Virus record (IMG/VR): IMGVR_UViG_3300030419_004766
Span: 1,945-65,944 of that record
Source of the DNA: a virus
Taxonomy: Duplodnaviria > Caudoviricetes
Strand: one strand, 5' to 3'
Length of the DNA: 64,000 nucleotides
A program made the position numbers and the translations under genes. The notes under the pieces are model-generated. The model worked only from the letters and a program-made list of their open reading frames with translations, had not been told where the DNA came from and made no database searches. Of this stretch, positions 4,986 through 48,284 are shown piece by piece (the first letter of the stretch is position 1; every line of letters begins with the position of its first letter).

Positions 4986-5937
4986 CAAATCAGACATAAT
5001 CAACTGCAAGTCTTGGATGGACATAGCAGATTGCAATTATGAATATGACTACCCAGAGGAAGACAATATACCTCCAACTGGAGTAGTCTACTGCAATATA
5101 GAGCACATCACAAAACTATTTAAAAAATGTGAAAAAACTGACAACAAGTACGTTGTTGTTAGCGGGTTTAGTGATTTTGGTTTGGGCTACCAAAAAGAAC
5201 ACCCAGTGGCAATGGACATGCTTAAGTGGCTACCGTTCATAGATTCAGAAATAGCAAAAATAGGATACAAATCCCTTCAGGTCGCTCCCAGATGCGATGT
5301 TGAAAAATGCAACGAGGAAGATAGATATTCTATAAAATGTTATTCTTTTACAATGGAAACTTTTAACAAGATACCAAAAAATGTAGTTAAGTGGTTTTTG
5401 GTAAACCCACTATTGATGAAAAACAAAATTCAAGGAATACCGATAGGAGTTGGCAAAGACTCTGCTGACGCAATATCAAAAACCCCTCACCAAAAAGATA
5501 AAAAAAACTGGCTTTACGTTAATTGGCAAAACTACACTACAGACAGAATGCACATAAAGAAATTTTTTATAAACAATAACTGGGATTGGGTTACGGCTCA
5601 CGAAGACCCCAACGTCCCATACGAACAATATCTCTCAGAGTTGTCGCAACATAGATTCGTTGCTTGCCCACCGGGAAATGGAGTTGATTGTTATAGGATT
5701 CTAGAATCTATTTACTTAGGGGCTATACCTATCGTTCAAGACTGCCCTGCTATGAGATATCTGGACGGCTTGCCAATAGTAAAAATCAGAGGCTGGGGAG
5801 CCATTAATTCTCTAGGGTGGCTAGAACAAAAATATCACGAAACTATGTCTCGTTTTAGAAATGGATTAGTTCTAGACAAGGCAAAATTATCTTATTGGAG
5901 CGGTGAAATGAGGAAAGCTATAAATGAAGTTTCCTAA
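4972..5937 (+). CDS. Exostosin/GT47-like glycosyltransferase
   Basis: FVACPPGNGVDCYRILESIYLGAIPIV motif. Confidence 0.55.
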   Translation: MSLIDKSDIINCKSWMDIADCNYEYDYPEEDNIPPTGVVYCNIEHITKLFKKCEKTDNKYVVVSGFSDFGLGYQKEHPVAMDMLKWLPFIDSEIAKIGYKSLQVAPRCDVEKCNEEDRYSIKCYSFTMETFNKIPKNVVKWFLVNPLLMKNKIQGIPIGVGKDSADAISKTPHQKDKKNWLYVNWQNYTTDRMHIKKFFINNNWDWVTAHEDPNVPYEQYLSELSQHRFVACPPGNGVDCYRILESIYLGAIPIVQDCPAMRYLDGLPIVKIRGWGAINSLGWLEQKYHETMSRFRNGLVLDKAKLSYWSGEMRKAINEVS

Positions 5938-6172
5938 CATGTCCACTATGGTAGCATATCAGTATTTTATGTCTTCCAATATAGGATCAAATCACAACAT
6001 AGATCAATTAAAAAAACATATGAGGTTGCTAAAAGTAGAATCAAAAAATATACATCCGTTCATATCATCTTGCACACACCACATGATAAACAACATAGAT
6101 TGGGTTTTTATAGAAAGCGAACTAATCAATGCCCAACAACAAATCGATAAATCTAATATCCCCGATCAATAG
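5924..6172 (+). CDS. Hypothetical protein
   Basis: 82-aa ORF overlapping both neighbours. Confidence 0.45.
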   Translation: MKFPNMSTMVAYQYFMSSNIGSNHNIDQLKKHMRLLKVESKNIHPFISSCTHHMINNIDWVFIESELINAQQQIDKSNIPDQ

Positions 6173-7205
6173 TCTGGGGTATGGCGTAGCTGGGCTAAAT
6201 ATAATCTCGTCTCTTGACAAGATTTGCGAGGTATCGCTATGGCCAATAGGGCAGCCAGAATGTGACAATTCTTATATACCTACAATAAAAAGGTGTATAG
6301 CAAGATCTGAATTACCAGACTTCAACGCCCCTTGTTTACGAATATGGCATCAGCATGACATGAGTCAGTTCGTAGGAAGGGGCGATAAAATTGGCCTACC
6401 TATTTTTGAACTAGACACATTTACCACTCAGGAAGAACATCATCTCAGTTCGCTGGATAAGATTATAGTATGCTCCGAATGGGCTAAAAAGATATGTGAA
6501 GATAAAGTTTCTGGAAATCCAAAAGTTTTTGTAGCTCCTCTCGGAGTGGATAGAGAAATATTTCAAGAAAGTAAATCGGTTAGAAAAGAAACTATATTTT
6601 TCAATTGTGGAAAATGGGAAGTAAGAAAAGGTCACGACATTCTTGTTGAAGCCTTCAACAAAGCGTTCTCAGACGAAGATGATGTAGAACTCTGGATGAT
6701 GTGCAACAACCCCTTTTACAGCAGCGAAGAAAATGAGAAGTGGGAACGTCTATATAAAGAGTCTCCTCTTGGAAACAAGATTAGGATAATTCCTAGGCAG
6801 ACTACACAAAAAGAGGTGTATAATATAATGAAGCAAATTGATTGCGGGGTCTTCCCATCCAGAGCGGAGGGGTGGAATCTAGAATTGCTTGAATTAATGT
6901 CCTGCGGAAAACATGTAATTGCTACTAATTACTCTGGACATACCCAATTTTGCAACAAAGAAAACTGCATGCTTATAGATATAGATAACAAAGAAGACGC
7001 GGTTGACAATAAGTGGTTTTTTGGCCAAGGCCAGTGGGCTAAAATTGGAGAAAAACAAATAAAACAAATGTCTGTATATATGAGTGCCATACACAGAGCT
7101 AAACGAAGAAATGACCTTTTTATAAATAGCGAATGCATAAAGACATCCAAGAAGTTTTCTTGGGGTAACACAGCAAAGGAGATTATCAATGCCATCTCCG
7201 CGTAA
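6129..7205 (+). CDS. Glycosyltransferase family 4 (GT-B)
   Basis: GKWEVRKG and FPSRAEGWNLELLELMSCG (EX7E) motifs. Confidence 0.85.
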   Translation: MPNNKSINLISPINSLGYGVAGLNIISSLDKICEVSLWPIGQPECDNSYIPTIKRCIARSELPDFNAPCLRIWHQHDMSQFVGRGDKIGLPIFELDTFTTQEEHHLSSLDKIIVCSEWAKKICEDKVSGNPKVFVAPLGVDREIFQESKSVRKETIFFNCGKWEVRKGHDILVEAFNKAFSDEDDVELWMMCNNPFYSSEENEKWERLYKESPLGNKIRIIPRQTTQKEVYNIMKQIDCGVFPSRAEGWNLELLELMSCGKHVIATNYSGHTQFCNKENCMLIDIDNKEDAVDNKWFFGQGQWAKIGEKQIKQMSVYMSAIHRAKRRNDLFINSECIKTSKKFSWGNTAKEIINAISA

Positions 7206-23932: not shown

Positions 23933-24006
23933 GCCCTTGTAGCTCAACAGGATAGAGCAACGGTCTTCTAAACCGTAGGTTGCAGGTTCGAGTCCTGCCG
24001 AGGGTG
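23933..24006 (+). tRNA. tRNA-Arg (anticodon UCU)
   Basis: Acceptor GCCCTTG/CGAGGGT, anticodon arm ACGGT-CTTCTAA-ACCGT, T arm GCAGG-TTCGAGT-CCTGC; CCA not encoded. Confidence 0.95.
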
Positions 24007-24029
24007 CGTGCATCCACGTCTATTGGACG

Positions 24030-33969: not shown

Positions 33970-34982
33970 CCTACATACGAAGCTCATCATATAATAGTTA
34001 TGACTACTGTCAGCAACAGTATTATATAAATTATGTTTTGGGGTTTCCATCAACATCTGGTAAAAAAGCCCAACAGGGAACCATCGTCCACAAGGTGATG
34101 GAGTGTCTGTCTGCTTGCAAGAAAAGGTTGCAAAGTCTTCCAGAGTCTAGCTTGATGAGTGTCACAGATGACGCACTCGGAAGAATCACATTCACTCATA
34201 GCAAACTGTACTCAGACGAGTTTGTTGACAAGTTAGTGGATAAAAGCTTTGAGTATTATACGTCTAACTGCGTACACTCTTATACAGAAAAAGAAGAAAG
34301 AGAATGTCGCAAGTGGACATGGATGGGCCTACATTACAATGATGGCCAATTTGACCCCAGAAACAGAACCATTGTAGACACAGAACCACACTTTGACATT
34401 GAGATAGATGAGCCGTGGGCAGAATACGATTATACTCTTGGCGACGGAACAAAACTGAAGGGCAAACTAGCCATCAAGGGGACCATAGATCTAGTTACAG
34501 AGGTGGAAGACGGAGTAATAGAAGTTATAGATTGGAAGACGGGAAGAAGAATTAATTGGGCCACAGGCGAAGAAAAGGACTATAATAAATTAGAGAGTGA
34601 TCCACAATTACTTCTCTACTATTATGCTATATCAAAGCTATACCCTGATTACAATCAGGCTATAATGACTATTTTCTATATCAAAGATGGAGGACCATTC
34701 TCTCTATGCTTTGATGATGGAGCCAAAGATCTATTCCTAAAAATGCTTAGGAAAAGGTTTAATCAGATCAAGAACAACAAGGCTCCTCAGTTGCTTTCCC
34801 GCGAGCAAACTCACTGGAAATGCACAAGGCTTTGCGACTATTATAAGAATAACTGGGAAGGTACAGATACCAATGTTTGTAAATATGTTCAAGAGCATAT
34901 TAAGAAACATGGTATTGAAAGGACTACATCGGAGTGTACCAAACCAGACTTTAATATAGGGTATTATGATGCTCCCGGTTAA
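33960..34982 (+). CDS. PD-(D/E)XK exonuclease, Cas4/AddB-like with putative Fe-S staple
   Basis: GTIDL, DWKTG and QL..Y motifs; one N-terminal Cys plus C-terminal CxxxC...C. Confidence 0.75.
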   Translation: MLVAYIRSSSYNSYDYCQQQYYINYVLGFPSTSGKKAQQGTIVHKVMECLSACKKRLQSLPESSLMSVTDDALGRITFTHSKLYSDEFVDKLVDKSFEYYTSNCVHSYTEKEERECRKWTWMGLHYNDGQFDPRNRTIVDTEPHFDIEIDEPWAEYDYTLGDGTKLKGKLAIKGTIDLVTEVEDGVIEVIDWKTGRRINWATGEEKDYNKLESDPQLLLYYYAISKLYPDYNQAIMTIFYIKDGGPFSLCFDDGAKDLFLKMLRKRFNQIKNNKAPQLLSREQTHWKCTRLCDYYKNNWEGTDTNVCKYVQEHIKKHGIERTTSECTKPDFNIGYYDAPG

Positions 34983-35919
34983 ATATTTTTCTAATGATGA
35001 AGTAGCGGAAATAATTTCGGTTCCAGAGTGCGTAGAAGTAGTTGAGGATTTATTCAATAATATTGAAGATACTCAGATGCCACCCAAAGTGTATATGGAT
35101 ATACCGAATGGTGATTTCAGGTCTATGCCAGCAGTCGTTAAAAACACGGCTGGTATCAAGTGGTGCGGAGTACATCTAGACGAAACGGGCACAAAACGCA
35201 AAATTAATATTTTTGCAAAAGTTCTTATCAACGATATAGATTCTGGAAAGCTGTTAGCTATTCTAGATGGAGAGACCCTAACAGCTATCAGAACAGCCGC
35301 CGTAACTGGCGTTGCCACTAGACACTTATCCCCCAAATATGCAACCAAAGCCGCTTTTATTGGATGTGGAAACCAAACACTTAGACAAATAGAAGCCGTA
35401 CTCACCGTAAGAGATATCGAGGTTATTAAACTATTTGATCTTAGCGAAGACAGAGCTAATCAATTAAAAGACGAATTAAATTATTTAGAGGTGAGGCAGG
35501 GAAGTCCTATAGAAATACAAGTACACAACGACCTTGAAAATTGTCTGTGGGACGCCGACATAGTAACTACATTAACACCCTCACGCCAACCATTTGTCAA
35601 GTATAAATATCTCAAACCTGTAGTTCACATTAACGCTGTTGGAGCAGACGCAGAAGGAAAAAGAGAGCTACATCCATGCGTTCTTGAAAATGTGGACTTG
35701 GTATCGTATGATGAATGGGTTCAGTGTTCCCATTCTGGAGAGATACAGTATGCTCAAAAGAGTAAAATTTCACAAATATGGTGCCCAATATCAGAAGTGG
35801 TTCAAGGCAGAGTAGAAAAAAGTGGGTGCAGGACTACGCTATTCGATGCTACAGGATTAGCAATAGAGGACGTTGCGACAGCACGATATATTTATGAAAA
35901 GTTCAACAAACAAAAGTAA
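34966..35919 (+). CDS. Ornithine cyclodeaminase/mu-crystallin family protein (close to archaeal-type alanine dehydrogenase pattern)
   Basis: MPPKVY, GDFRSMPA, GIKW, RTAA, VGAD..GKREL and DATGLAIEDVA motifs. Confidence 0.88.
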   Translation: MMLPVKYFSNDEVAEIISVPECVEVVEDLFNNIEDTQMPPKVYMDIPNGDFRSMPAVVKNTAGIKWCGVHLDETGTKRKINIFAKVLINDIDSGKLLAILDGETLTAIRTAAVTGVATRHLSPKYATKAAFIGCGNQTLRQIEAVLTVRDIEVIKLFDLSEDRANQLKDELNYLEVRQGSPIEIQVHNDLENCLWDADIVTTLTPSRQPFVKYKYLKPVVHINAVGADAEGKRELHPCVLENVDLVSYDEWVQCSHSGEIQYAQKSKISQIWCPISEVVQGRVEKSGCRTTLFDATGLAIEDVATARYIYEKFNKQK

Positions 35920-36424
35920 TATTGTACAGGTCGACTTTACCGATGAGATGGTAGAGCGAGCTATAGATAAATCAAAATGGCTTGGGAAAATAAATAATTC
36001 TATTCTCAAGGGCAGGGGAAACTTTGCTGGTTTTCTCGGTGAGGAAATAGTTGCTGATTATATCCAAGCCGAGATAATCAGTAAAAGTAAAAGTGCAGAG
36101 AGATTTAACTATGATCTAATCAAGGGATCTCAAAAGATAGAAGTAAAATCTAAACGCAGGAAGGTTCCTCCTAAAGATTTTTATGATGCGTCTGTAGCAG
36201 AAACGAGCGCTCACCAAAGGCCGGATATATATATCTTTACCAGTATTCAATTTAAGAACCATAAACCTATTAGAGCTTGGATTTGTGGACAAAAGGACGC
36301 AAAGGAATACTTTCAACAGGCTAATTTTTATGCGGAGGGAGATATTGACCCCTCTAACGGTTGGAAAGTTTCTACCGATTGTCATAATTTGCCGTACAAG
36401 GATCTTGACCCAGTAGGACGCTGA
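35873..36424 (+). CDS. Restriction-endonuclease-like PD-(D/E)XK protein
   Basis: GE....YDL....IEVKSK pattern; start possibly ATG 35894. Confidence 0.5.
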   Translation: MRQHDIFMKSSTNKSNIVQVDFTDEMVERAIDKSKWLGKINNSILKGRGNFAGFLGEEIVADYIQAEIISKSKSAERFNYDLIKGSQKIEVKSKRRKVPPKDFYDASVAETSAHQRPDIYIFTSIQFKNHKPIRAWICGQKDAKEYFQQANFYAEGDIDPSNGWKVSTDCHNLPYKDLDPVGR

Positions 36425-36425
36425 A

Positions 36426-38345
36426 ATGCCAATTTGGACGCCGCTACACTTGCACACCCATTACAGTTTATTGGACGGTCTCTCAAAGCCCTCACAGGTC
36501 GCAGAACGCTGCTCGAACCTTGGGTACGATGCATGCGCCGTGACTGACCACGGGACGATCTCAGGGGCCGTTTCGTTCGTCAGGGCGATGAAAGCAAAAA
36601 ACATAAAGCCTATCCTTGGGTGTGAATTTTATTTGTGTGATCAAGACCCCTGCGTAAAAGACAAGAGTAATAGGCAGCTAAGCCATCTAGTAGTTCTGGC
36701 TAAAAATTTAAATGGTTGGAAAAAGTTGATAGAAGCAACTTCAGCCAGCAATGACGAAGAAGTCTTTTATCACAAACCGCGATTGGATCTCAATACTCTT
36801 GCTGAATACTGTGACGGAGATCTTATCAGTTTTTCTGGCCACATAGGGAGCCAGCTTGCAGATATTATATTCTCTGATAAAAAGTCTGCATATGGAGCAT
36901 CCACCTATGAAGAAGCCAAACAGTGCATAGACACAGACTGGCTTAACAAAACCACTCTGCTGGCTGAAAAATATAGAGATATTTTCGGCAACGGCAATTT
37001 CTTTTTAGAAATACAACTGATAGATCAAGATCAGTGTCCCGCTCAAAGAATTACTGCTGAAGCATTAAGGTATATCAGCAAGAAAACTGGAATACCGTGT
37101 GTTGCCACAGCAGATTCTCACTATTGCTCTTCCGAGGACGCTCCAGACCAGAGGGTTCTTCTATGCTCTTCCATGAGAACAACACTGAAGAAAGTAGAAG
37201 AAAAACTTAACAATTCTGAAGATGTTGGATTAGGCGGATTCTTTTGTTCAAATAGATATCACATTCCGACAGAAGAAGAAATTCAACAGATAAATACAGA
37301 AGCAGAAATTCATAACACCAAAACAATAGCTGACATGTGCGAGGACTATAACATTTTGGGAACACCAATGCTTCCAAAATTCTCTTGTCCAGACAACATG
37401 GCGGAAGACGAATACTTAAGGGTTCTTTGCAGGAGGGGATGGCAAGATAAACTAGTTGCTTCTGGAAAAGTATCAGGAGATGATAGATCTGAGTTGTATG
37501 CTGAAAAAATAAAAGAAGAGCTTTCAGTCATACAAGAAGCAAATCTATCCGGTTATTTCCTCATAGTTCAAGATATAGTAAATCATGTAAGAGAGCAGGG
37601 ATGGTTGCCGGGTCCGGGTCGAGGATCAGCAGCAGGTTGCTTAATATCCCATCTGATTGGTATAACAGAAGTAGACCCAATAGAATATGGTTTAATTTTT
37701 GAGAGATTTTACAACGCTGGTAGAAATACTGGAGGGCATATATCCCTGCCAGATATCGACATTGATGTTCCTACCAACAAGAGAGAATCTGTAATTGAAT
37801 ACATGCGTCAAAAATATGGAAGAGACAATGTTGGCCAGATGGTTACACTTGGCCGCATGCAAGGTAGAACCTCTTTAAAAGAAGTGTTGCGGGTTCATGA
37901 TGCGTGCAGTTACGAAGAAATGAATCAAATAACCAAAAATATTCCATCAGAAGCAGAGATATCAGACCAACTACAAGAAATGGAAGACCCCTCTATTATT
38001 AGGTGGGCTTTGATTAATCAACCTGACAGGCTTAGAGACTGGTGTCGGATGGAAGATGATGGCAGTCTAAGTGGAGACTTATCAAAACTATTTGAACAGG
38101 CCATTCGATTAGAAGGAACATATAAATCGCAAGGCAAGCACGCTGCTGGAGTAGTAATTTCTTCCGAAAACTTAAGCGAAGTGTGTCCAATGGTTAGAGA
38201 AAAAAGAGGATCAGAAAAAATAGCGGGCTTGGAAATGCAAGATTTAGAAGCTATGGGTCATGTTAAATTCGATATTCTTGGAATCAGCTTTCTTGACAAA
38301 ATTATGGGAGTATCCAATCAACTATCTACCGGAATAATTAAATGA
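36426..38345 (+). CDS. dnaE: DNA polymerase III alpha, N-terminal half (PHP + palm)
   Basis: HLHTHYSLLDG, TDHG, GRGSAAG, PDIDID, HAAGVVI and KFDILG motifs; ends 20 aa after KFDILG. Confidence 0.92.
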   Translation: MPIWTPLHLHTHYSLLDGLSKPSQVAERCSNLGYDACAVTDHGTISGAVSFVRAMKAKNIKPILGCEFYLCDQDPCVKDKSNRQLSHLVVLAKNLNGWKKLIEATSASNDEEVFYHKPRLDLNTLAEYCDGDLISFSGHIGSQLADIIFSDKKSAYGASTYEEAKQCIDTDWLNKTTLLAEKYRDIFGNGNFFLEIQLIDQDQCPAQRITAEALRYISKKTGIPCVATADSHYCSSEDAPDQRVLLCSSMRTTLKKVEEKLNNSEDVGLGGFFCSNRYHIPTEEEIQQINTEAEIHNTKTIADMCEDYNILGTPMLPKFSCPDNMAEDEYLRVLCRRGWQDKLVASGKVSGDDRSELYAEKIKEELSVIQEANLSGYFLIVQDIVNHVREQGWLPGPGRGSAAGCLISHLIGITEVDPIEYGLIFERFYNAGRNTGGHISLPDIDIDVPTNKRESVIEYMRQKYGRDNVGQMVTLGRMQGRTSLKEVLRVHDACSYEEMNQITKNIPSEAEISDQLQEMEDPSIIRWALINQPDRLRDWCRMEDDGSLSGDLSKLFEQAIRLEGTYKSQGKHAAGVVISSENLSEVCPMVREKRGSEKIAGLEMQDLEAMGHVKFDILGISFLDKIMGVSNQLSTGIIK

Positions 38346-38569
38346 CTAAAACAGATATCTATAAAAAGGTTATTATAGATGGGTCGGCAGTAGAATGTAA
38401 CAGATTGTCTTTATGCTGTATTAACGACTATATGAAATTTTCATCAAATAGAAATATTAGATATCAAGTGGATTGTGATGATTACAGATTAAAATTTAGC
38501 GAATTGTATGATGACATCCATGTCGCTGTTGAAAAATACATAGAAATAAAAAGAAAACTGTACAAATGA
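38342..38569 (+). CDS. Hypothetical protein
   Basis: ATGA-coupled to both neighbours. Confidence 0.55.
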   Translation: MTKTDIYKKVIIDGSAVECNRLSLCCINDYMKFSSNRNIRYQVDCDDYRLKFSELYDDIHVAVEKYIEIKRKLYK

Positions 38570-39090
38570 GATTAGACCACATCGCTTACAGAGTTTCTGA
38601 CAGAAAAAAAACTTCCAACTTTCTCAACGGAATACTTAAATATAAAGTTGAGACTGAATTTGACATTGTTTTCGATGATGGGTCTAAAGCTGATTGTATT
38701 GCTATGATCCCAAAAGAAAAAATGGACAATGTTCCATCAATAGAAGCTGGAGGACACAGACATGTTGCTCCAGAAATATTCGTATCAGACGGAGATGAAA
38801 ATTCGATTGTTGGAAAGTGGGTTGCCGAAAGAGGTGGTGTCGGGGGAGTCCACCACTTTGCTTATCAAGTGTTTGGTATAGATCGTGTCGTAAAAGAGTG
38901 GAGAGAAGAAGGAGTAGAATTTCTCACAGAAGAAGTGATCGACTGTCCTGAAGACGATCTAAGACAAATCTTTACAAAACCCCTTCCAGAATTAGGCGGG
39001 GTAATTATAGAACTAATAGAGCGGGGCCACAAAGGGTTCTGCCAAAACTCAGTAAAAAATCTAATGGAATCTACAAAGGAAGCAAAATGA
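38566..39090 (+). CDS. VOC-family metalloenzyme resembling the HPPD C-terminal domain
   Basis: LDHIA, GGVHHFAY, LRQIFTKP and IELIER..KGF motifs. Confidence 0.7.
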   Translation: MRLDHIAYRVSDRKKTSNFLNGILKYKVETEFDIVFDDGSKADCIAMIPKEKMDNVPSIEAGGHRHVAPEIFVSDGDENSIVGKWVAERGGVGGVHHFAYQVFGIDRVVKEWREEGVEFLTEEVIDCPEDDLRQIFTKPLPELGGVIIELIERGHKGFCQNSVKNLMESTKEAK

Positions 39091-40577
39091 CAACATACCA
39101 AATAACAAAGGGAATGCATTATATTAATGGTCGATTCGTCGATGGGGACGAAGAAAACTTATTTGATAGCGTTAATCCTGCTACGGGAAAAATAGTTGGA
39201 GCATTTCCACAGGCTTCTAAAGAGGAAGTTGAAAATGCTTACAGTTCTGCTAGAGGAGCTTTGAGTGAGTGGAGAAATTTAAGTAGATTTCAACGCGGCG
39301 ATTATTTTCTCAGAGTAGCCAGCCTAATAGAAAATAATAAAGAAGATATTGCAGAAATTATTAGTCTAGAGACTGGTAAAGTTTTTAATGAGTCTATTGC
39401 GGAAGTCAACGAGGCTTTGCATATGGCTCAATACGCTTTTAGCACAGGAAGGATGCCTTATGGAGAAGCAATCGCGTCTGAGCTACCTGAAAAGGACGCT
39501 TTTATGCTCAGGAAGCCCAAGGGTGTTGTTGCTATTGTTGCTCCTTTTAACTTTCCTTTCGCTATTGGAGGCTTCTGGTGCGCTGCACCGGCTCTTGTCG
39601 AAGGTAATACCGTTATTTTAAAACCAAGCGAAGATGTTCCTTGGGTTGGGCAGATTACTGCGGAGCTTTATAGAGAAGCTGGTTTTCCACCGGGCGTGTT
39701 TAATATGATTCATGGTGATGGTATGGTTGGAAACAGCCTTATAAAACAAGATGTAGACCATATTTGCTTTACCGGAAGCGCTGATGTAGGAATGCATGTT
39801 CGTAAAGTGTGTGCTGAAAGCTGGCACAAAACTTGTTCTTGTGAAATGGGAAGTAAATCAGCAGTAATTATCCATGAAGACGCCAATTATGACCTAGCAA
39901 TGGCGGCGTGTCTTGCCAGCGCTTTCAAACTGTCTGGTCAACGCTGCGTGTCTGCCGGTCGGATGATTGTCCACCGATCTCTATATGATAGATTTGCACA
40001 AGATTTTGCTTCTCTTGCCGCTAACGCTGTAACAGGAGACCCGTTTGACGATAACACATTTTACGGAAGCCTAATTAACGAACCCCAACTCCAAAGGGTT
40101 GAAGGGTTTAACAAAATGGTAGAGGAAGACCCAGAAGCAGAAGTGTTGTTGATGGGAGAACGCTTGGAAGGCGATGGCCTATTCTTAACACCCACTGTGT
40201 ACAAGACTGAGTGGAGAGATGTCCCTTATCTCAAGCAGGAGGTATTTGGACCTCATGTCTCTATTATTCCTTACGACACAGTAGATGATGCTATTCGCAT
40301 TTATAATGATACAGACTATGGACTTTCACTAGGAGTAGTAACGGAGAACTTTAAAATTGCCAGACGTATCCGTAATGAGTGTGATTTTGGTCTTGGTTAT
40401 TGGAACGGTGGCAGCATTGCGGCTGAGAGCCATCTGGGATTCGGAGGAGTGAAGAAGTCTGGAAACGGACAACCTAGCGCAGCCCGAACCTTCAGATCTG
40501 TTACACATGAAGTAGCTTGGACTGTCAATCACGGCGACTCTCTAAACTTTCCACAAGGCATGAAGACCGGTAGCTAA
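39087..40577 (+). CDS. Aldehyde dehydrogenase (candidate P6C/aminoadipate-semialdehyde or P5C dehydrogenase)
   Basis: PFNFP, LKPSE, FTGS, EMGSK, GQRC and EVFGP motifs. Confidence 0.9.
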   Translation: MTTYQITKGMHYINGRFVDGDEENLFDSVNPATGKIVGAFPQASKEEVENAYSSARGALSEWRNLSRFQRGDYFLRVASLIENNKEDIAEIISLETGKVFNESIAEVNEALHMAQYAFSTGRMPYGEAIASELPEKDAFMLRKPKGVVAIVAPFNFPFAIGGFWCAAPALVEGNTVILKPSEDVPWVGQITAELYREAGFPPGVFNMIHGDGMVGNSLIKQDVDHICFTGSADVGMHVRKVCAESWHKTCSCEMGSKSAVIIHEDANYDLAMAACLASAFKLSGQRCVSAGRMIVHRSLYDRFAQDFASLAANAVTGDPFDDNTFYGSLINEPQLQRVEGFNKMVEEDPEAEVLLMGERLEGDGLFLTPTVYKTEWRDVPYLKQEVFGPHVSIIPYDTVDDAIRIYNDTDYGLSLGVVTENFKIARRIRNECDFGLGYWNGGSIAAESHLGFGGVKKSGNGQPSAARTFRSVTHEVAWTVNHGDSLNFPQGMKTGS

Positions 40578-41377
40578 TGACCGATTTGTTGGTATGCAAT
40601 CCTGCATATTTTAACATAGACTACGAAATAAACCCTTGGATGGACATCGGAAACGATGTTGATCCCAGCTTAGCTTCTAGGCAATGGGAGAAGATGTGCT
40701 CTAGTCTAACTTTGATAGGAGCAAATTTAAAATATATTAAACCTATGTATGGATATCCAGACATGGTCTTTACGGCTAATGCTGGATTGGTACATGGCAA
40801 CACAATTATTCTCTCAAACTTCAAACACGGCGAACGCAGGGGCGAGAAAGCCTTTTTTAAAGATTGGTTTCTTAAAAATGGCTACAGGGTAGTAGAATTG
40901 CCAGACTCTATCTGCTTTGAAGGAGAGGGGGATGCCCTATTTTTTGAAGACACCCTGTTTATGGGATACGGTTTTAGAACCGATCTTGCATGCCATTCTA
41001 TTATATCTAAAGCTCTTGGCGTAGAAGTTATATCATGCGAATTAGTTGATCCAAGATTCTACCATTTAGACACATGCTTCCTCCCCATAAAAAACAGAAT
41101 TGTATATTACAGAGAGGCTTTTTCTCAAAGAAGCCAAGAAATCATGTTAAGAAAACTGGTTGATATTGGTAATGATACCGGAGAGCTTGACGTATTGAAC
41201 ATACACGAAGACCAAGCTAAAGACTTTCTCTGCAATAGTATAGAGGTAAACAATAAGATTCTCAGCCCATCAGACATGTTCTCACTGTCTTTTTCTGGCA
41301 GGGAAACTTTTACTTGTGATATGTCAGAGTTTATGAAGTCTGGAGGAGCCATCAAATGTCTAACTCTGAGGCTATAA
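40577..41377 (+). CDS. Amidinotransferase-superfamily enzyme, ArgZ/AgrE arginine-dihydrolase-like
   Basis: YEINPWM, PDMVFTANAGLV, FEGEGD, YHLDT and GGAIKCLTL motifs. Confidence 0.82.
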   Translation: MTDLLVCNPAYFNIDYEINPWMDIGNDVDPSLASRQWEKMCSSLTLIGANLKYIKPMYGYPDMVFTANAGLVHGNTIILSNFKHGERRGEKAFFKDWFLKNGYRVVELPDSICFEGEGDALFFEDTLFMGYGFRTDLACHSIISKALGVEVISCELVDPRFYHLDTCFLPIKNRIVYYREAFSQRSQEIMLRKLVDIGNDTGELDVLNIHEDQAKDFLCNSIEVNNKILSPSDMFSLSFSGRETFTCDMSEFMKSGGAIKCLTLRL

Positions 41378-42564
41378 GCACATTAAAAAAATACATCCTC
41401 GTTGACGGATTTCATGTTGTAGTAGACACAGCAAAGAGTATGGGTAGTTGGATTGTAGATGCAGATACAGGCAATAGATACTTGGATTGCTACTCTCAAT
41501 TTGCCAGTCAAGCGTTGGGTTGGAAAGACCCCGCTATGATATCCGCGCAAAAGGAGATGGGTCGCGCTGGCATGACAAAGATTGCTAACAGCGATATGTA
41601 CTCAGAAGAATACGCAAGGTTTGTTGAAAGCTTTACGTCCATCACTCCTGATTTTGAACATTATTTTTTTATTGATGGCGGGGCTTTAGCAGTAGAGAAC
41701 GCTCTAAAAGCTGCATTTGATTGGAAGGCTCAAAAACTGGGTTATAGCCACATTGTTGATATCAACAATCTAGACATCTTCCATCTCAAGAACGCATTTC
41801 ACGGGCGAACAGGATATACCCTTTCTCTCACTAACACTACTCCCGAAAAAACCGCGCTTTTTCCCAAGTTCAGATGGACTACCGTAGAGCCTGACTGCGA
41901 AGATATTGAAGCTCGGATACATGATGAGGTTGCTGCCATTATCGTGGAACCCATCCAAGGAGAAGGTGGAGACAACCACTTCCCGCAAGAGTTTTTCAAA
42001 AATTTAAGACGCATAGCAGATGAACACGATAGCCTTCTCATATTTGACGAAGTGCAAACAGGCATGGGGCTGACTGGAAAGATGTGGGCTTATGAACATT
42101 TCGACGTTGTACCAGACATGATGTGCTTCGGCAAGAAGACTCAAGTTTGCGGAGTATGTTCCACAAACAGAATAGACGAGGTAGAGAGCAATGTTTTTAC
42201 TACTTCCGGTCGTATTAATTCTACTTGGGGTGGCAATATTGTGGACATGGTTAGATCGAGACACATAATAGATGCTATTCAACAGCGAGATTTAGTACAA
42301 AACGCATCGCAAGTCGGTCAAGATCTTCTTAGACAATTGAGAAAACTTCCAGTAATAGACAATGTTCGTGGTAGAGGTCTTATGATTGCATTTGACTTGC
42401 CGGATGAGCAAATGCGAGACGGGATGATGTCACTTCTACAAGAGAACATGCTTGCTCTTAAGTCTGGCAATCGTTCAATTAGGCTAAGACCACCGCTGAC
42501 ATTTTCTTTCGAGGATGCGGAGTCGGCAAAGAACTTCATCTATGAGGCCATTACAAAACTATGA
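41356..42564 (+). CDS. lat: L-lysine 6-aminotransferase (class III PLP)
   Basis: GGALAVENALKAAFDWK, AFHGRTGYTLSLTNT, DEVQTG, FGKKTQVCG and STWGGN match mycobacterial/streptomycete LAT. Confidence 0.88.
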   Translation: MSNSEAISTLKKYILVDGFHVVVDTAKSMGSWIVDADTGNRYLDCYSQFASQALGWKDPAMISAQKEMGRAGMTKIANSDMYSEEYARFVESFTSITPDFEHYFFIDGGALAVENALKAAFDWKAQKLGYSHIVDINNLDIFHLKNAFHGRTGYTLSLTNTTPEKTALFPKFRWTTVEPDCEDIEARIHDEVAAIIVEPIQGEGGDNHFPQEFFKNLRRIADEHDSLLIFDEVQTGMGLTGKMWAYEHFDVVPDMMCFGKKTQVCGVCSTNRIDEVESNVFTTSGRINSTWGGNIVDMVRSRHIIDAIQQRDLVQNASQVGQDLLRQLRKLPVIDNVRGRGLMIAFDLPDEQMRDGMMSLLQENMLALKSGNRSIRLRPPLTFSFEDAESAKNFIYEAITKL

Positions 42565-43400
42565 AAATAAGAAACGTAGGGATAATAGGGCAAGGCTTTG
42601 TTGGGACAGCCTTAAGAGAAGTGTTCTCGTGTTACAACAAAGTGTATACTTACGATAAAGCTCATAAAGATCTTTCAACACACAAAGGAATATCCGATCT
42701 ATCATACTCTTGCGATGTGGTTTTTGTTTGTGTTCCAACACCAATGAAGCCAGACGGATCATGCGACACATCAATTGTTGAGGCTGTTTGTTTAGAGGCT
42801 TGCAGAACTGGAAGACAAAATATCATTGTCATCAAGTCTACAGTGCCTCCGGGGACCACCAAAAAAATCAACGAACAGTGTGTTAACTCCCAAGTGGTCT
42901 TTAATCCTGAGTTTCTTTTGGAAAGAAATGCAACTGAAGACTTTCGCAATACCACCCGTGTTATTCTAGGTGGACCCAGACCAGCGACAACTAGATTAAA
43001 ATGGTTTTACGCAAACGTTTTCCCCAAAGCTTCCATTGTGAAGACAGATTCAACTATAGCGGAATACGTGAAATATCTTACCAACTGCTTCTTATCTGTG
43101 AAAGTTTCTCTAGCCAACGAAATCTCGTCGATGTGTGAGGCAGACGGGGTTGACTACGACAAGGTGGTCGAATATGCTATATACGACAACCGGCTGGGGA
43201 ATTCTCATTGGTCGGTTCCCGGCCCAGATGGCAGTCTGGGATTCGGAGGAAGTTGTTTTCCAAAAGATCTCAACGCTTTAATACAACACGCAATAAGCAT
43301 TGGTGTGCCGCCCAATACTATGGTAGGGGCTTGGAATACCAACTTAACGGTAAGACCAGAAAAAGATTGGGAACAGCTTAAAGGGAGGGCTGTACAATGA
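42561..43400 (+). CDS. ugd: UDP-glucose/GDP-mannose dehydrogenase family (short form)
   Basis: GQGFVG, VCVPTP, IKSTVPPGT, FNPEFL and GFGGSCFPKD motifs. Confidence 0.85.
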   Translation: MKIRNVGIIGQGFVGTALREVFSCYNKVYTYDKAHKDLSTHKGISDLSYSCDVVFVCVPTPMKPDGSCDTSIVEAVCLEACRTGRQNIIVIKSTVPPGTTKKINEQCVNSQVVFNPEFLLERNATEDFRNTTRVILGGPRPATTRLKWFYANVFPKASIVKTDSTIAEYVKYLTNCFLSVKVSLANEISSMCEADGVDYDKVVEYAIYDNRLGNSHWSVPGPDGSLGFGGSCFPKDLNALIQHAISIGVPPNTMVGAWNTNLTVRPEKDWEQLKGRAVQ

Positions 43401-44491
43401 GAGCTATGATCTTTGGGGCTGGAAGAATGGGCCAACCCACAGCTTGGGCGATGGAGAAACTAGGCTATGAAATAGATCTAGTAGACCAATCCGAAGAGGC
43501 TTTAAAAAAGTGTTCGAGTATTTTAGACCAGTCACCAACCACACATTTGCTTAAAGACATCACCAGAGCAATTGTTAGACCGTATCCTGACGTTGTTATA
43601 TCTGCTCTACCATATCATCAAAATGAAATTATTGCAAACTACTGTATTAAGAATGGAGTTAGATATTGCGATTTGGGAGGCAACGAGGAGACAAGCCAAA
43701 GGATAAATGAGTTTGCCAAGAAGAGGGGTAGTAAACCCATAATGACTGACTTGGGTCTTGCGCCGGGATTGGTAAATATCATAACTGAAAACTTGTACAA
43801 ACAGATAGCATCAGAAGAAGAAAAGAACCCAGAGCGAGTCCTGATGATGGTAGGCGGTCTACCCAAACACGCTGACAAAGAAGACCACTTCAATTATTTG
43901 TGTAGTTGGTCTGTAGACGGACTTATTAATGAATACACAGAGCCAACAACTGTGTTAGACCAAGGAGTCCTCACCAGTGTCAACGCTTTGGATGGACACC
44001 AAGTGGTTTCAACCCAAAGCCTAGGCATGCTGGAAGCTTTTTATACTAGTGGCGGGCTATCGCACAGCCTTAATAGTCTGAAAGATTCAGGAGCCTCTAA
44101 CGTAGCTTACAAAACTCTTAGATGGCCGGGACATTTCAGGACTATAAAATTACTTATTGATAAATGCGACCTTGATAGAGAAACATTGAAAAATATTTTT
44201 ATAAAAAATTGCACCATGAAAAGTGAAGAGGATTGTGTTCTAATATATATAGCAATAGATGAAAAAATTCAGGAGATGCTAGTACCTCCTGATCAAAATT
44301 TTTCCGCCATGCAGCGTTGTACTGGGTATGGTGTTGCTTGTGCCGCCTCCTTAATAGGAGAGGGAGTTTATGACAAAGAATTTTCTCGCCAGCCGATCAA
44401 GCATGGAGATATCATCTTTGAAGATTTCAATAGCAAAATGGACGCTTTAGTAGTTGAAGACACGAAGGATTCTAACGATGAATTACAATGA
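43397..44491 (+). CDS. Saccharopine dehydrogenase / lysine 6-dehydrogenase family
   Basis: GAGRMG, YCDLGG, GLAPG, VGGLP, WSVDGLINEY, LEAFYTSGG and YKTLRWPGH motifs. Confidence 0.87.
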   Translation: MRAMIFGAGRMGQPTAWAMEKLGYEIDLVDQSEEALKKCSSILDQSPTTHLLKDITRAIVRPYPDVVISALPYHQNEIIANYCIKNGVRYCDLGGNEETSQRINEFAKKRGSKPIMTDLGLAPGLVNIITENLYKQIASEEEKNPERVLMMVGGLPKHADKEDHFNYLCSWSVDGLINEYTEPTTVLDQGVLTSVNALDGHQVVSTQSLGMLEAFYTSGGLSHSLNSLKDSGASNVAYKTLRWPGHFRTIKLLIDKCDLDRETLKNIFIKNCTMKSEEDCVLIYIAIDEKIQEMLVPPDQNFSAMQRCTGYGVACAASLIGEGVYDKEFSRQPIKHGDIIFEDFNSKMDALVVEDTKDSNDELQ

Positions 44492-45158
44492 TATTTGCGT
44501 TTTTGATTTTGAAACTGGAAGTAGAAATCCACACACAACACAGCCTATACAAATAGCAGCCGTTATGATACACGGTCGCAAGCTAACAGTACAGCCCAGC
44601 GGATATTTCGAATCTCTCATTAAACCCCTAGATGATGAAAAAGCTATTGCTTCTGGGGTAGACCCATTGGAAGATGAAGCCCTAGCAGTTAATGGCAAAA
44701 CCAAAGCAGAATTAGCGAAGGCCCCGCATTTAAAAACTGTTTGGGAAAGATTCACTAAGTTTGTAGAAAAGTTTAACTACAAAAAGGGGTCTTGGACGGC
44801 TCCAATTCCCGCTGGTCACAATATAAACAATTTTGACATGATCATCGTAAAGCGTTTATGTCAAGAATACGGGCCATTGGACAAAAAGAGAAATCAACAG
44901 GGGGTATTTCATGCTATCCACAGCATGGATTTAATGAACAATGTTTTTATGTGGACTGAAAACAATCCTGATATACGAAGCGTTAGTATGGATTCTATTA
45001 GGGACTGGATGGGAATCCCTAAAGATAATGCTCACGACGCTTTGCAAGACGTGAAGGATACAGCGTCAGTTCTCATAAAGTTTCTTAAACTATACAGACA
45101 CTTTGCTCCAAAGGTCATGTTCGAGAAGGCTCTTGCGGATGAAAAATTACGAATTTGA
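44478..45158 (+). CDS. DEDDh 3'-5' exonuclease (DnaQ/epsilon-like)
   Basis: DFETG, HNINNFD and HDALQD motifs; likely start at ATG 44478. Confidence 0.85.
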   Translation: MNYNDICVFDFETGSRNPHTTQPIQIAAVMIHGRKLTVQPSGYFESLIKPLDDEKAIASGVDPLEDEALAVNGKTKAELAKAPHLKTVWERFTKFVEKFNYKKGSWTAPIPAGHNINNFDMIIVKRLCQEYGPLDKKRNQQGVFHAIHSMDLMNNVFMWTENNPDIRSVSMDSIRDWMGIPKDNAHDALQDVKDTASVLIKFLKLYRHFAPKVMFEKALADEKLRI

Positions 45159-46824
45159 TTGTGGGTGTTCTTTCGAGGTTCTAGATGAAGATTCTAAAGA
45201 GACTATATCCCAAACAGGACTGCCGTCTATAAATTTCGACATCAAAAAGGCTAAGTATGACTGTGAAAAAACTTGGGGTTTGATCTGCTCTGGACAAACA
45301 AAAGGAGTATTTCAACTAGAAAGCAATTTGGGAAAATCTTGGGCGAAAAGAATCCGGCCAGTAAATATTGAAGAATTGGCGGCTCTTATAGCTTTAATTA
45401 GACCCGGATGCTTGAAGGCTATCATCGATGGAAAATCCATGACACAGCATTATGTAGATAGGAAAAATGGATCAGAAGCCATATCCTATCTTCATGATTC
45501 TCTAGAGCCTATATTGAAAACCACTCAAGGAGTTTTGGTTTATCAAGAGCAAAGTATGCAAATAGCCCAAGTGATAGCGGGCTTTAATCTACAGCAAGGC
45601 GACGATCTTAGAAAAGCTATCGGCAAAAAACAAGCTGGTTTGATGTCAGAAGTAAAAGATTCTTTTCTGGATGGAGCGGATAAAACTGGAATAGTTTCCA
45701 GAGATGTTGCTGAAGAAATTTTTGGTTGGATTGAAAAATCAAACCGGTACGCTTTTAACAAAAGCCATGCTGTTTCTTACGCCGTGTGTGCGTACTGGTC
45801 TGCATACGCCAAGGCTCATTTTCCAATCAATTTTTACTGCAATTACCTATTTTATGCCAATGGAAAACAAGACCCTCAATCTGAAATAAGAGAGCTTGTT
45901 AAGGATGCTAAAATATGTGGCATTCAAGTTTCCCCGCCTTCTATGACTAATATGGACTGCAAGTTTAGTATTAGAAATAAAGTTATAAATTTTGGATTCA
46001 ATGACATAAAATCCGTTGGAGAAAAACAGGTCAGCAAATTATTGCAAGTAATCAAAGATTCTGAAGAAGATTTGTCTAAACTAATAGCAGATTGGTCTTG
46101 GTACGAATTTCTTGTGAATGCCTCTCACAAGATTAACAAAAGCGTTGTCGTATCTCTTATTTCTGTAGGAGCCATGTCTCATTTTGGCCTTAGCCGCAAT
46201 GAAATGTTGTACGAATTCGAGACTTGGCAAAAGCTGACAGATAAAGAAAAGCAGTGGATTATAGAAAGACGAGACGATTGGGATTGTTTAATAGACGCTT
46301 TAACAAAAATGGCCCCAACCAGAAAGAATGGTGGCGGAACCTTTAACACAACTAGAAATTCTATTGTAGAAGATCTCATTCTCTTACTGAAGAACCCACC
46401 GTACTCAATCGAAGATAGTCCGGGTTGGGTTTCAAAAACTGAAAAAGAAGCACTGGGTGTAGCACTAACTTATTCCGAAGTGGATTCGTGCGATGTAAGT
46501 GGCTCAAATTCTACATGTAAAGAGTTTTTTGACGGCAAACGTGGTAATATAATCTTGGCGGTCCAAATTTCCAATTGCAATGAATACATTGTGAAAAATG
46601 GTAGGTCTAAAGGCCAACCCATGGGATTCCTTGCAGTGGAAGATAACACGGGGAGCTTGGATACCATTACTGTTTTTTGCGACCAATGGAAGCAATACAA
46701 GGGGCTGCTATACGAAGGGAATACGGTGCTACTTCATGGGAAATCCTCTGGAGAAGCATCCCCCGGAAAAAAACGATATCAGATCGACGACGGCTTTGTC
46801 GTTGAAAAAGTTTCTCAAATATAG
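45139..46824 (+). CDS. dnaE: DNA polymerase III alpha, C-terminal half (fingers, HhH, OB fold)
   Basis: GVFQLES, ALIRPG, LVYQEQ, LRKAIGKK, YAFNKSHAVSY and FLAVEDNTG motifs; likely start at ATG 45139. Confidence 0.92.
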   Translation: MKNYEFDCGCSFEVLDEDSKETISQTGLPSINFDIKKAKYDCEKTWGLICSGQTKGVFQLESNLGKSWAKRIRPVNIEELAALIALIRPGCLKAIIDGKSMTQHYVDRKNGSEAISYLHDSLEPILKTTQGVLVYQEQSMQIAQVIAGFNLQQGDDLRKAIGKKQAGLMSEVKDSFLDGADKTGIVSRDVAEEIFGWIEKSNRYAFNKSHAVSYAVCAYWSAYAKAHFPINFYCNYLFYANGKQDPQSEIRELVKDAKICGIQVSPPSMTNMDCKFSIRNKVINFGFNDIKSVGEKQVSKLLQVIKDSEEDLSKLIADWSWYEFLVNASHKINKSVVVSLISVGAMSHFGLSRNEMLYEFETWQKLTDKEKQWIIERRDDWDCLIDALTKMAPTRKNGGGTFNTTRNSIVEDLILLLKNPPYSIEDSPGWVSKTEKEALGVALTYSEVDSCDVSGSNSTCKEFFDGKRGNIILAVQISNCNEYIVKNGRSKGQPMGFLAVEDNTGSLDTITVFCDQWKQYKGLLYEGNTVLLHGKSSGEASPGKKRYQIDDGFVVEKVSQI

Positions 46825-46862
46825 TGCGAAAAACGCCTCTTGAGCGTTTTATAGGTTATAGA

Positions 46863-47396
46863 ATGAAAAACGGAGACCTTCTAAATTTTTTTGAAAAACA
46901 TGACTATGTAACAAGAGTCATGGCTTCTGATGACGGGCTTGGATGTACAGTTTCCTTTCCCTCTCAGAAAATGCTTGGCGGCGAAGATAAAGAAACCATC
47001 TGTGTATATCAAATTCAGGAAGAGCCACTCCCGTCTGGAGTACACTACTATTCTTCAGAGAGCTTCAAACCTACTTTTATAGACTGCCCAGCCTACTCTG
47101 CTAGAATAATTATTTTTCAAGACATATTGATGAAAACAGAGAGACTAAAACTCTCCTCACAATTTATTATATATTACGACGAAGAAGGAAACAAACTTAA
47201 CTCAGATTTAACTTTCATAGATTTAATCAACGCTCCTTTTGATGAAGATCAGGCGCTTTTGGAGGAAAAACTCGTAGAAATATTTTACGCTGCGTACCCA
47301 AACTTTACAAAGGAATTTTTAGAATTAGCAGATAAAGAAAATGTGTCGAAGGGCTATGAGTTAATACACCTCGCTTTTTTAATGGAAGGACTTTAG
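46863..47396 (+). CDS. Hypothetical protein
   Basis: ATG 46863 preferred over the track start, which overlaps a small AAAACGC/GCGTTTT hairpin. Confidence 0.6.
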   Translation: MKNGDLLNFFEKHDYVTRVMASDDGLGCTVSFPSQKMLGGEDKETICVYQIQEEPLPSGVHYYSSESFKPTFIDCPAYSARIIIFQDILMKTERLKLSSQFIIYYDEEGNKLNSDLTFIDLINAPFDEDQALLEEKLVEIFYAAYPNFTKEFLELADKENVSKGYELIHLAFLMEGL

Positions 47397-47399
47397 AGC

Positions 47400-47789
47400 A
47401 TGAACAATTGTCATTTTATCGGAAGGTTGGTTCAAGACCCAGAGCTTACAGATGTCAACGAGACTTCTGTGGTAAGGTTCACGCTAGCCGTGAACGAATA
47501 CAGAAAATCCAAGGATGGAGAAAAGAGCAAGAAGGTTGATTATCTTGATTTTGAAGCTTGGGATAGTGGAGCGACAACGATTGACAGATACTGCTCAAAA
47601 GGCGACGAAATTGCTGTAATGGCGTGTGCCCGTCAGGACAAATGGACTGACAAGGATGGCAACCGTAGGTCAAAGATCAAGTTTCGTGTTAACAAGTTTA
47701 AGTTGTTCAACAGATCTCAGACTAAAAACGATTATGAATCACGAGAGACAGTAACTTCACAACAAGCAGCAGACACTGCTCCGTTTTAA
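47400..47789 (+). CDS. ssb: Single-stranded DNA-binding protein (bacterial type)
   Basis: GRLVQDPEL, FTLAVN, W.DKDG..RS and C-terminal APF motifs. Confidence 0.92.
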   Translation: MNNCHFIGRLVQDPELTDVNETSVVRFTLAVNEYRKSKDGEKSKKVDYLDFEAWDSGATTIDRYCSKGDEIAVMACARQDKWTDKDGNRRSKIKFRVNKFKLFNRSQTKNDYESRETVTSQQAADTAPF

Positions 47790-48284
47790 ATGAAATCTGA
47801 AAAACTATCTGAAGATCCTGAGACGCAGCTAGTCGATGAACATTATGGACTAGTTGTGTCTCAGGCTATTCGGCTATCTTCTCAACAAAGTGATCTAGAA
47901 GATTACATGCAGGTTGGCTTTATAGGTCTTTTAAAAGCTATAAGAAATTACAATCCTGAAAAAAGTCAATTTTCTACTTTTGCTACGGTTTGCATAAGAA
48001 ACGAAATCTTCAGGTATATGAGGAAAAACAAGAAAAAGACTTCAAACTTTTACATCAAAAAAGATAACCACTATACCACTAAAGAGCAATTGTGGGAATT
48101 AGTGCCAGATTGTTTAACAGAAAAAGAAAAATTGGTCCTGCAAATGAAAGCTGAGAACTACACACACAAAGAAATAGCAGAAAAGCTGTCTTGTCCCAAA
48201 GGACAAATAAAACATATAGTTAGAAAAATCATAGACATAACGAGAAAATGTTATCGTGAGGAAAAAGAGGATACTTCTTTGTAA
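47790..48284 (+). CDS. RNA polymerase sigma factor (sigma-70 family)
   Basis: DYMQVGFIGLLKAIRNY and FSTFATVCIRNEI (region 2); YTHKEIAEKL (region 4). Confidence 0.88.
   Translation: MKSEKLSEDPETQLVDEHYGLVVSQAIRLSSQQSDLEDYMQVGFIGLLKAIRNYNPEKSQFSTFATVCIRNEIFRYMRKNKKKTSNFYIKKDNHYTTKEQLWELVPDCLTEKEKLVLQMKAENYTHKEIAEKLSCPKGQIKHIVRKIIDITRKCYREEKEDTSL

Follow-up and report, generated by a model that had tools for sequence, protein, structure and literature searches.

An intein-free dnaE gene cut at the palm/fingers boundary in a marine phage clade and the probable two-chain DNA polymerase III alpha it encodes

The alpha subunit of DNA polymerase III (Pol III), the product of dnaE, is the textbook single-chain bacterial replicase, and to our knowledge its only well-known natural split is the cyanobacterial one, which is healed by a split intein. 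A 64-kb stretch of the genome of an uncultured marine phage (Caudoviricetes; IMG/VR record IMGVR_UViG_3300030419_004766, positions 1,945 to 65,944, hereafter the window) carries dnaE as two half-genes about 6.8 kb apart, and it raises the question of what such halves are for: they could be one enzyme made as two chains, one enzyme whose halves are rejoined, two proteins with separate functions, or the remains of a broken gene. We consider it likely, with a probability of roughly 0.8, that the replicative polymerase encoded here is a naturally split, intein-free DnaE which would work as a noncovalent alpha-N/alpha-C enzyme.

The half-genes had been reported in a first-pass annotation made from the sequence alone, and Pfam, the phage DnaE profile phrog_405, and alignments to the Thermus aquaticus (Taq) and Escherichia coli enzymes bore out both their identity and their spacing:

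36426..38345, + strand: dnaE-N, Pol III alpha N-half (PHP, palm, thumb), 639 aa; PF02811, PF07733
45139..46824, + strand: dnaE-C, Pol III alpha C-half (fingers, HhH/beta-binding, OB), 561 aa, with a three-Cys N-terminal head; PF17657, PF14579

dnaE-N contains a complete PHP domain (PF02811 positions 2–162 of 164, E 6e-38) and a full-length palm (PF07733, 1.8e-69), covers positions 44–607 of the 1190 in phrog_405, and aligns with Taq DnaE from 9 to 630 and with E. coli DnaE from 5 to 563. In E. coli DnaE, the catalytic aspartates are D401, D403, and D555, carried on a Pol-beta-like palm; their counterparts in the window, D445 and D447 (in PDIDID) and D616 (in KFD), lie in motifs that align with those of Taq and all fall within dnaE-N, just as the first-pass annotation had assigned them along with PHP and palm. 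dnaE-C contains the fingers (PF17657, 3.4e-45) and HhH (PF14579) domains, covers phrog_405 positions 622–1079, and aligns with Taq 640–955 and E. coli 584–900. Its AlphaFold2 model (predicted local distance difference test score, pLDDT, 90.2) matches full-length DnaE structures over ~560 columns that run from the fingers to the OB fold (Foldseek E 3e-23); dnaE-C ends with this OB fold, and no C-terminal tau-binding domain is evident in it.

Because the profile matches and the Taq and E. coli alignments of the two halves abut there, we place the cut in the loop at the palm/fingers boundary, at 563/584 in E. coli and 630/640 in Taq numbering. No DnaE segment is lost or duplicated at the cut, which upholds a further claim of the first-pass annotation, and the break carries ~32 additional residues relative to Taq. 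PHP, palm with its Asp triad, fingers, HhH, and OB are thus all present but spread over two chains, and it is as a single polypeptide that this DnaE fails, with a stop codon at 38343–38345 and a fingers domain that resumes at 45139. This last coordinate corrects the earlier one for the C-half: the open reading frame (ORF) opens at TTG 45103, and since all close relatives are 561 aa long and begin at the position equivalent to ATG 45139, that ATG is almost certainly the true start. Among 93 aligned N-half relatives, D445, D447, and D616 are invariant and the GRGSAAG loop is invariant or nearly so, as are the fingers motifs GVFQLES, RPG, YQEQ, LRKAIGKK, and FNKSH among 80 aligned C-half sequences.

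Eight genes occupy the gap between the halves, namely a 75-aa ORF, six metabolic genes, and dnaQ:

38342..38569, + strand: orf75, mini-protein following dnaE-N with an ATGA overlap, 75 aa; modeled with AlphaFold2
38566..39090, + strand: cassette gene 1, VOC/glyoxalase-fold protein, 174 aa; PF13669, PF00903; weak similarity to the C terminus of 4-hydroxyphenylpyruvate dioxygenase (4HPPD)
39087..40577, + strand: cassette gene 2, NAD(P) aldehyde dehydrogenase, 496 aa; PF00171 1.4e-127; no NCBIfam equivalog above cut-off
40577..41377, + strand: cassette gene 3, arginine-dihydrolase/DDAH-like guanidino-group hydrolase, 266 aa; NF052232 Arg_dihydro 1e-74 (below cut-off); PF19420
41356..42564, + strand: cassette gene 4, class III aminotransferase of the L-lysine 6-transaminase family, 402 aa; TIGR03251 488.9 bits versus a cut-off of 520.8; PF00202
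42561..43400, + strand: cassette gene 5, short nucleotide-sugar dehydrogenase-like protein, 279 aa; PF03721 positions 60–180, PF00984; TIGR03026 positions 73–293 of 413
43397..44491, + strand: cassette gene 6, saccharopine-dehydrogenase-like oxidoreductase, 364 aa; PF16653, PF03435
44478..45158, + strand: dnaQ, DEDDh 3'-5' exonuclease (epsilon-like), 226 aa; PF00929, phrog_192

The stop codon of dnaE-N overlaps the next start as ATGA, as first noticed, and overlaps of 1–22 nt occur at each of the ten gene junctions from dnaE-N to dnaE-C. Promoter-like and terminator-like sites showed no excess over shuffled expectation, and the overlapping genes are consistent with a single translationally coupled operon. 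The dnaQ gene sits immediately upstream of dnaE-C and overlaps it by 20 nt; its ExoI–III motifs are intact (DxE at residue 10, NxxFD near 116, Hx4D at 186), it is 90% identical to the copy in a close relative (L019; L and P numbers are our handles for relatives) with a ratio of nonsynonymous to synonymous substitution rates (dN/dS) of 0.02, and it lies between the halves in every relative examined. The gap genes are therefore not only unrelated ones, since dnaQ belongs to the conserved module. A fusion of alpha and epsilon as the ancestral state was considered and rejected; among the top 150 relatives, none has an RNase_T domain fused to either half.

A break in a metagenome-type sequence could still be an assembly or sequencing artefact, or the sign of a decaying pseudogene in a phage replicated by a host polymerase or by another phage polymerase. 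The evidence against this comes mainly from relatives. The N-half was searched exhaustively against 1.84 billion cluster representatives (50% identity), and among the best 150 matches, which were inspected, 141 end at the same junction (~20 of these with inteins elsewhere) and six run on into the fingers domain; the shared breakpoint that the first-pass annotation had proposed looking for in related phages is thus found in most of the nearest representatives. Marine metagenomes, among them Tara, are rich in both the N-half family (~630–650 aa) and the C-half family (~520–561 aa). The order dnaE-N, small ORF, dnaQ, dnaE-C, tightly packed, recurs in the nine IMG/VR loci that hold both halves and in two ENA contigs, and by this comparison we take it to be the conserved ancestral order. 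Relatives from separate samples whose halves are 81–85% identical to those of the window reproduce its layout exactly, with L015–L018 covering dnaE-N through the aminotransferase and L019 covering the dihydrolase through dnaE-C, SSB, and the sigma factor, and between them and the window dN is 0.10–0.13 for both halves while dS is saturated. Among cultured and GenBank phages, there was no megablast match to the locus, and the best tblastn identity was 35%.

Since independent assemblies and 141 of 150 representatives share the break and dN is low, the split is neither peculiar to the window nor an artefact, and we conclude from these comparisons that it is kept by selection, in line with the first-pass view of an evolved arrangement rather than an error. 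The shared neighbors in assemblies from separate samples, the invariance of all catalytic motifs, and the absence of PolA and PolB from the partial relatives (see below) point the same way and leave an artefact or pseudogene extremely improbable. Two observations on individual N-halves stand apart from this question. In one of the 150 matches, P0242, the C terminus of the N-half is fused, exactly at the break, to a circularly permuted YpsA (cpYpsA) SLOG domain (PF12694, 1.6e-35); and in L013 (10001–12988), an in-frame insert of ~1.1 kb breaks the N-half at its catalytic DxD motif and would fit an intein like those of P0137 and P0127.

Covalent rejoining of the halves into a single-chain enzyme, through protein trans-splicing with a cryptic split intein, RNA trans-splicing, or translational bypass, has precedents in the split-intein DnaE of cyanobacteria and in marine "fractured gene" loci (PMC2677866), and inteins do circulate in this clade, as seen in relatives P0124 and P0189, whose sequences stop in an Int-N that directly follows FNK. 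In the window, neither dnaE half has a Pfam match to a Hint/intein domain, although the same scan found inteins with LAGLIDADG domains at other positions in relatives. Split inteins require an N part of ~88–105 aa plus a separate C part (PMC2677866), whereas only 14 aa at the end of dnaE-N and 29 aa at the head of dnaE-C extend past the DnaE-alignable part, and most relatives have just a few residues at these termini. At the dnaE break, we found no C/S/T nucleophile with an HN junction, nor any of the features by which Int-N and Int-C are recognized in split-intein and fractured genes (HINT motifs, Cys1, terminal Asn plus Cys/Ser/Thr). An Rfam scan of 35500–47500 returned no intron and no other RNA family, and the gap, whose genes are the mini-ORF, the six metabolic enzymes, and the DEDDh exonuclease, holds no free-standing homing endonuclease; the 6.8 kb between the halves consists of conserved coding genes under purifying selection. 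Taken together, these results make rejoining very improbable and sustain the first-pass description of the locus as intein-free. They also sustain its statement that the break differs from the cyanobacterial site: the cut in the window is a clean loop cut, and dnaE-C retains an unbroken YAFNKSH, the region in which the cyanobacterial split site lies. A dead intein serving as a clasp at the break was rejected as well, the termini being too short and without Hint signal.

We propose instead that one operon of overlapping genes would yield alpha-N, the 75-aa mini-protein, the DEDDh proofreading exonuclease, and alpha-C, with the six-gene amino-acid catabolism cassette presumably co-transcribed with the replicase genes. 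Alpha-N and alpha-C would dock noncovalently across the palm/fingers interface and so rebuild the active-site cleft, the palm giving the metal-binding aspartates and the fingers chain giving the contacts to deoxynucleoside triphosphate (dNTP) and template as well as the clamp-binding and OB modules; neither half alone should polymerize. Both halves would be needed for one active site because the palm aspartates and the fingers motifs are both invariant. The exonuclease probably joins as epsilon does in the Pol III core, and because its gene is locked between the halves, a core-like alpha-N/alpha-C/epsilon complex is suggested; in such an alpha–epsilon pairing, DnaQ, whose DEDDh motifs are intact, would bind the polymerase. 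No polymerase-sized ORF in the 64-kb window is left unaccounted for, and none is of PolB size. Four partial related records contain neither PolA nor PolB (PF00136), and each of these four, like a fifth, contains a single DnaE palm.

Several points weigh against a two-chain polymerase. The polymerase survey covers 64 kb of a genome that is probably ~150 kb, and the relatives are 33–57% complete, so that a second polymerase is possible elsewhere. The termini at the break are short, with no dedicated docking domain identified that would be comparable to a split-intein clasp, and the interface must therefore rest mainly on native palm/fingers contacts. Finally, we infer both the binding of alpha-N to alpha-C and the activity of the pair. 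The proteins could also act separately, for example with alpha-N and DnaQ forming a module for nuclease activity or repair, and alpha-C serving a host polymerase as an accessory that binds the clamp or DNA. The halves are, after all, separate genes, one N-half relative (P0242) is fused to the unrelated SLOG domain, and cargo genes part the halves in several lineages. However, the halves always co-occur, in the same order and in one operon, contiguous versions nest inside the clade, and the catalytic residues of alpha-N and the dNTP/template motifs of alpha-C are both invariant, which is hard to explain unless the two form one active site. We consider separate functions unlikely and retain the two-chain enzyme as the preferred reading.

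How old is the split? Trees built with FastTree on 153 N-half regions and with IQ-TREE on a 43-row subset gave the same picture: the marine clade is set apart from the DnaEs of cultured phages with full support, and every one of its basal branches is split. The six contiguous forms fall inside the split clade, in two groups (supports 96–99). An approximately unbiased test rejected the best tree in which all marine split forms make up one group without the contiguous ones (delta log-likelihood 92, p 0.021), although this grouping was named after the first tree had been seen, which weakens the test. Parsimony favors a single old split with two or more later re-fusions; repeated splitting at the same loop is the alternative. 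The trees and the selection seen on the halves point to a split that is ancient in the marine phage clade and has been maintained by selection. Among the relatives, P0124 and P0189 have no break at the palm/fingers junction and end in their Int-N directly after FNK; this phage clade therefore also contains a split-intein cut that coincides with or adjoins the classical cyanobacterial site.

Outside this clade, the cultured Rossellomorea phage phiT1 (L021, PV767480) has the same loop cut. Its locus at 2986–6268 encodes gp20 (573 aa), gp19 (49 aa), and gp18 (469 aa), with the tail of the N-half following the KFDLLG helix, the head of the C-half starting just before the GVFQLES block, and, as in the window, a mini-ORF (here gp19) between the two. 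It differs from the window in being 31% identical and in having no dnaQ between the halves. Because phiT1 lies outside the marine clade in the trees, beside the contiguous Brevibacillus phage Sundance (97–100 support), its split is probably an independent event. The phiT1 halves are annotated only as two "DNA polymerase III subunit alpha" coding sequences. In Bacillus phage KLEB27-3, DnaE is cut slightly further on, by an HNH gene.

Set beside known systems, the window shares with single-chain DnaEs (E. coli 2HNH/5FKU and T. aquaticus 2HPI/4IQJ; phages Geobacillus GBK1 and Streptomyces Leviticus) the domains and their order (PHP, palm, thumb, fingers, HhH, OB), the Asp triad, the motifs of the fingers, and a neighboring gene for an epsilon-type exonuclease. 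Unlike them, it is cut into two genes with dnaQ, a mini-ORF, and six metabolic genes between, and it has no evident tau-binding domain. The split-intein DnaEs (cyanobacterial dnaE-n/dnaE-c and the marine fractured genes, PMC2677866) likewise place DnaE in two genes, and fractured genes have their halves in cis, separated by another gene, in a marine, phage-like environment (Dassa et al. 2009, PMC2677866). The window differs from these in having neither Int-N nor Int-C, no homing endonuclease, and a break elsewhere that leaves FNKSH intact, so that its product would stay as two chains; P0124 and P0189, which do use a split intein after FNK, are contiguous where the window is cut.

Two intein-free phage systems come closer. 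According to PMC2988022, which cites Petrov, Ratnayaka and Karam (2010), the T4-related Aeromonas phages 25 and 44RR have an intein-free split family B polymerase, gp43A/gp43B, with extra DNA in the gap, and the 43A and 43B products of phage 25 copurify and are active. This is the best functional analogy, a replicative phage polymerase in two polypeptides without an intein; it is family B rather than C and limited to a few phages, whereas the split in the window appears to be ancestral to a clade with more than 100 clusters at 50% identity. Group 2.2 jumbo phages encode a minimal Pol III alpha catalytic module as two stand-alone proteins, also without an intein (Iyer et al. 2021, PMC7824862). 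That module has no PHP or accessory domains, is cut between its NTP-binding and Mg/DNA-binding subdomains, is encoded by distant genes, and occurs alongside a family B polymerase (PMC7824862). The window does not belong to this type: its PHP, HhH, and OB domains are present, the cut is at the palm/fingers boundary, no PolB-sized ORF is found in the window, and no PF00136 match is found in the four partial relatives. Two broad C-family polymerase surveys mention only the intein split and frameshift fragments. Our literature search found no description of an intein-free palm/fingers DnaE split with dnaQ between the halves, and a search for phiT1 gave only irrelevant results.

The 6.8-kb separation reported in the first-pass annotation holds for the window but does not define the arrangement. 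Relatives have their halves ~1–1.7 kb apart (~3.4 kb in L002 and L003, where an RCC1 gene lies in the gap), and the wider spacing of the window arises because a 5.9-kb cassette of six genes (38566–44491) is inserted between the mini-ORF and dnaQ. Relatives with N-halves 65–69% identical (L001, L004, L026, L027) share synteny from RecA to the glycosyltransferases and lack all six cassette genes, and for this reason the cassette is judged to be a recent, lineage-specific insertion. No insertion scars are recognizable around it, repeats amounting to no more than short pairs of chance length. Together, its genes look like an arginine/lysine-type catabolic auxiliary module. Cassette gene 5, which is without its C-terminal domain, is nevertheless conserved (84% identity and dN/dS 0.04 against L019). 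A further metabolic gene lies just upstream of dnaE-N:

34966..35919, + strand: ornithine cyclodeaminase/mu-crystallin family gene; PF02423 1.3e-69

This gene is present in L015–L018 and absent from L001, L004, L026, and L027, a distribution by which we regard it as a second lineage-specific metabolic insertion. Arginine/lysine-type catabolic genes thus flank dnaE-N on both sides (34966–35919 and 38566–44491), and the set appears to be an auxiliary metabolic module gained recently. Different cargo lies between the halves in other lineages: an 820-aa RCC1-repeat protein (L002 12056–14518; also L003), a TylF-like methyltransferase between dnaQ and dnaE-C (L004 12774–13547), and a 165-aa protein without an assigned family (L027 11243–11740). 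Because different lineages carry different cargo there, the gap between the halves behaves as a tolerated insertion site.

Two small elements of the module deserve mention. orf75 had no match in Pfam, PHROG, or NCBIfam, and 18 homologues were aligned. Its AlphaFold2 model (pLDDT 86.7) shows a small alpha/beta domain with an alpha-beta-beta-alpha-beta-beta-alpha fold, which gave no significant structural match in the PDB (none with E below 0.2). A theta-like subunit was rejected on these grounds, the model being alpha/beta rather than a three-helix bundle. Grouping the mini-ORFs of separate subclades into one family was also rejected, since profile comparison gave a probability below 1%. The second element is the head of dnaE-C, ~29 aa with the motif F-D-C-G-C-x-F and a third Cys before a conserved TW (45139–45270, the first ~44 residues). 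The motif recurs in deep branches (L002, L003, L006, L008, L009, L013, L027) and is missing in L001, L004, and L026. Across 118 C-halves, a Cys a few residues before TW is found in all 30 that have the CxC head and in 20 of the 88 that do not. The head is modeled as a beta-hairpin plus helix (pLDDT 85–88), and the three Cys could form a structural or metal site or a docking element. An "xxG" motif in the N-half tail that seemed to covary with the Cys head was dropped, L026 being discordant.

A more far-reaching picture can be drawn from these elements, although we regard it as speculative and rather doubtful as a whole. The split would be the ancestral and selected state of a large, abundant marine phage clade rather than a tolerated scar; a multi-subunit core of alpha-N, alpha-C, epsilon, and perhaps the mini-protein would assemble via the conserved three-Cys alpha-C head, possibly a metal-binding knuckle; the gap would be a protected landing pad that expresses its cargo (amino-acid catabolism cassette, RCC1-repeat protein, methyltransferase) in step with replication; and the contiguous relatives would be secondary re-fusions.

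A large, environmentally abundant phage clade appears to run Pol III alpha as two chains cut exactly at the palm/fingers boundary. It offers a natural system for asking how a C-family active site is assembled, whether the fingers/clamp-binding module can be exchanged or regulated separately, and how epsilon fits. The split also matters for annotation, as pipelines either give both genes the label "DNA polymerase III alpha" or take them for fragments, and surveys that "repair" fragmented DnaE (PMC3919608) would hide it. As the cassette shows, a replicase operon can also take in auxiliary metabolic genes directly.

The rest of the window reads as a segment of a phage genome, with nearly all long ORFs on the + strand and a GC content of ~40%. 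A replication module lies near dnaE-N (RecA/UvsX-like, DnaB, DnaG, dNMP kinase, ThyX, and a PD-(D/E)XK exonuclease), and three further features were placed:

47400..47789, + strand: SSB, PF00436; conserved downstream neighbor
47790..48284, + strand: phage sigma-70-like factor (regions 2 and 4), PF04542, PF04545; directly downstream of SSB
23933..24007: tRNA-Arg (TCT), the single tRNA gene

SSB followed by the sigma-70-like factor is found in the same order in L019, L020, L026, and L027, and in the window a glycosyltransferase island lies downstream of the pair. In L013 (16009–18807), the homologue of a 557-aa glycosyltransferase of the window is interrupted by ~1.2 kb.

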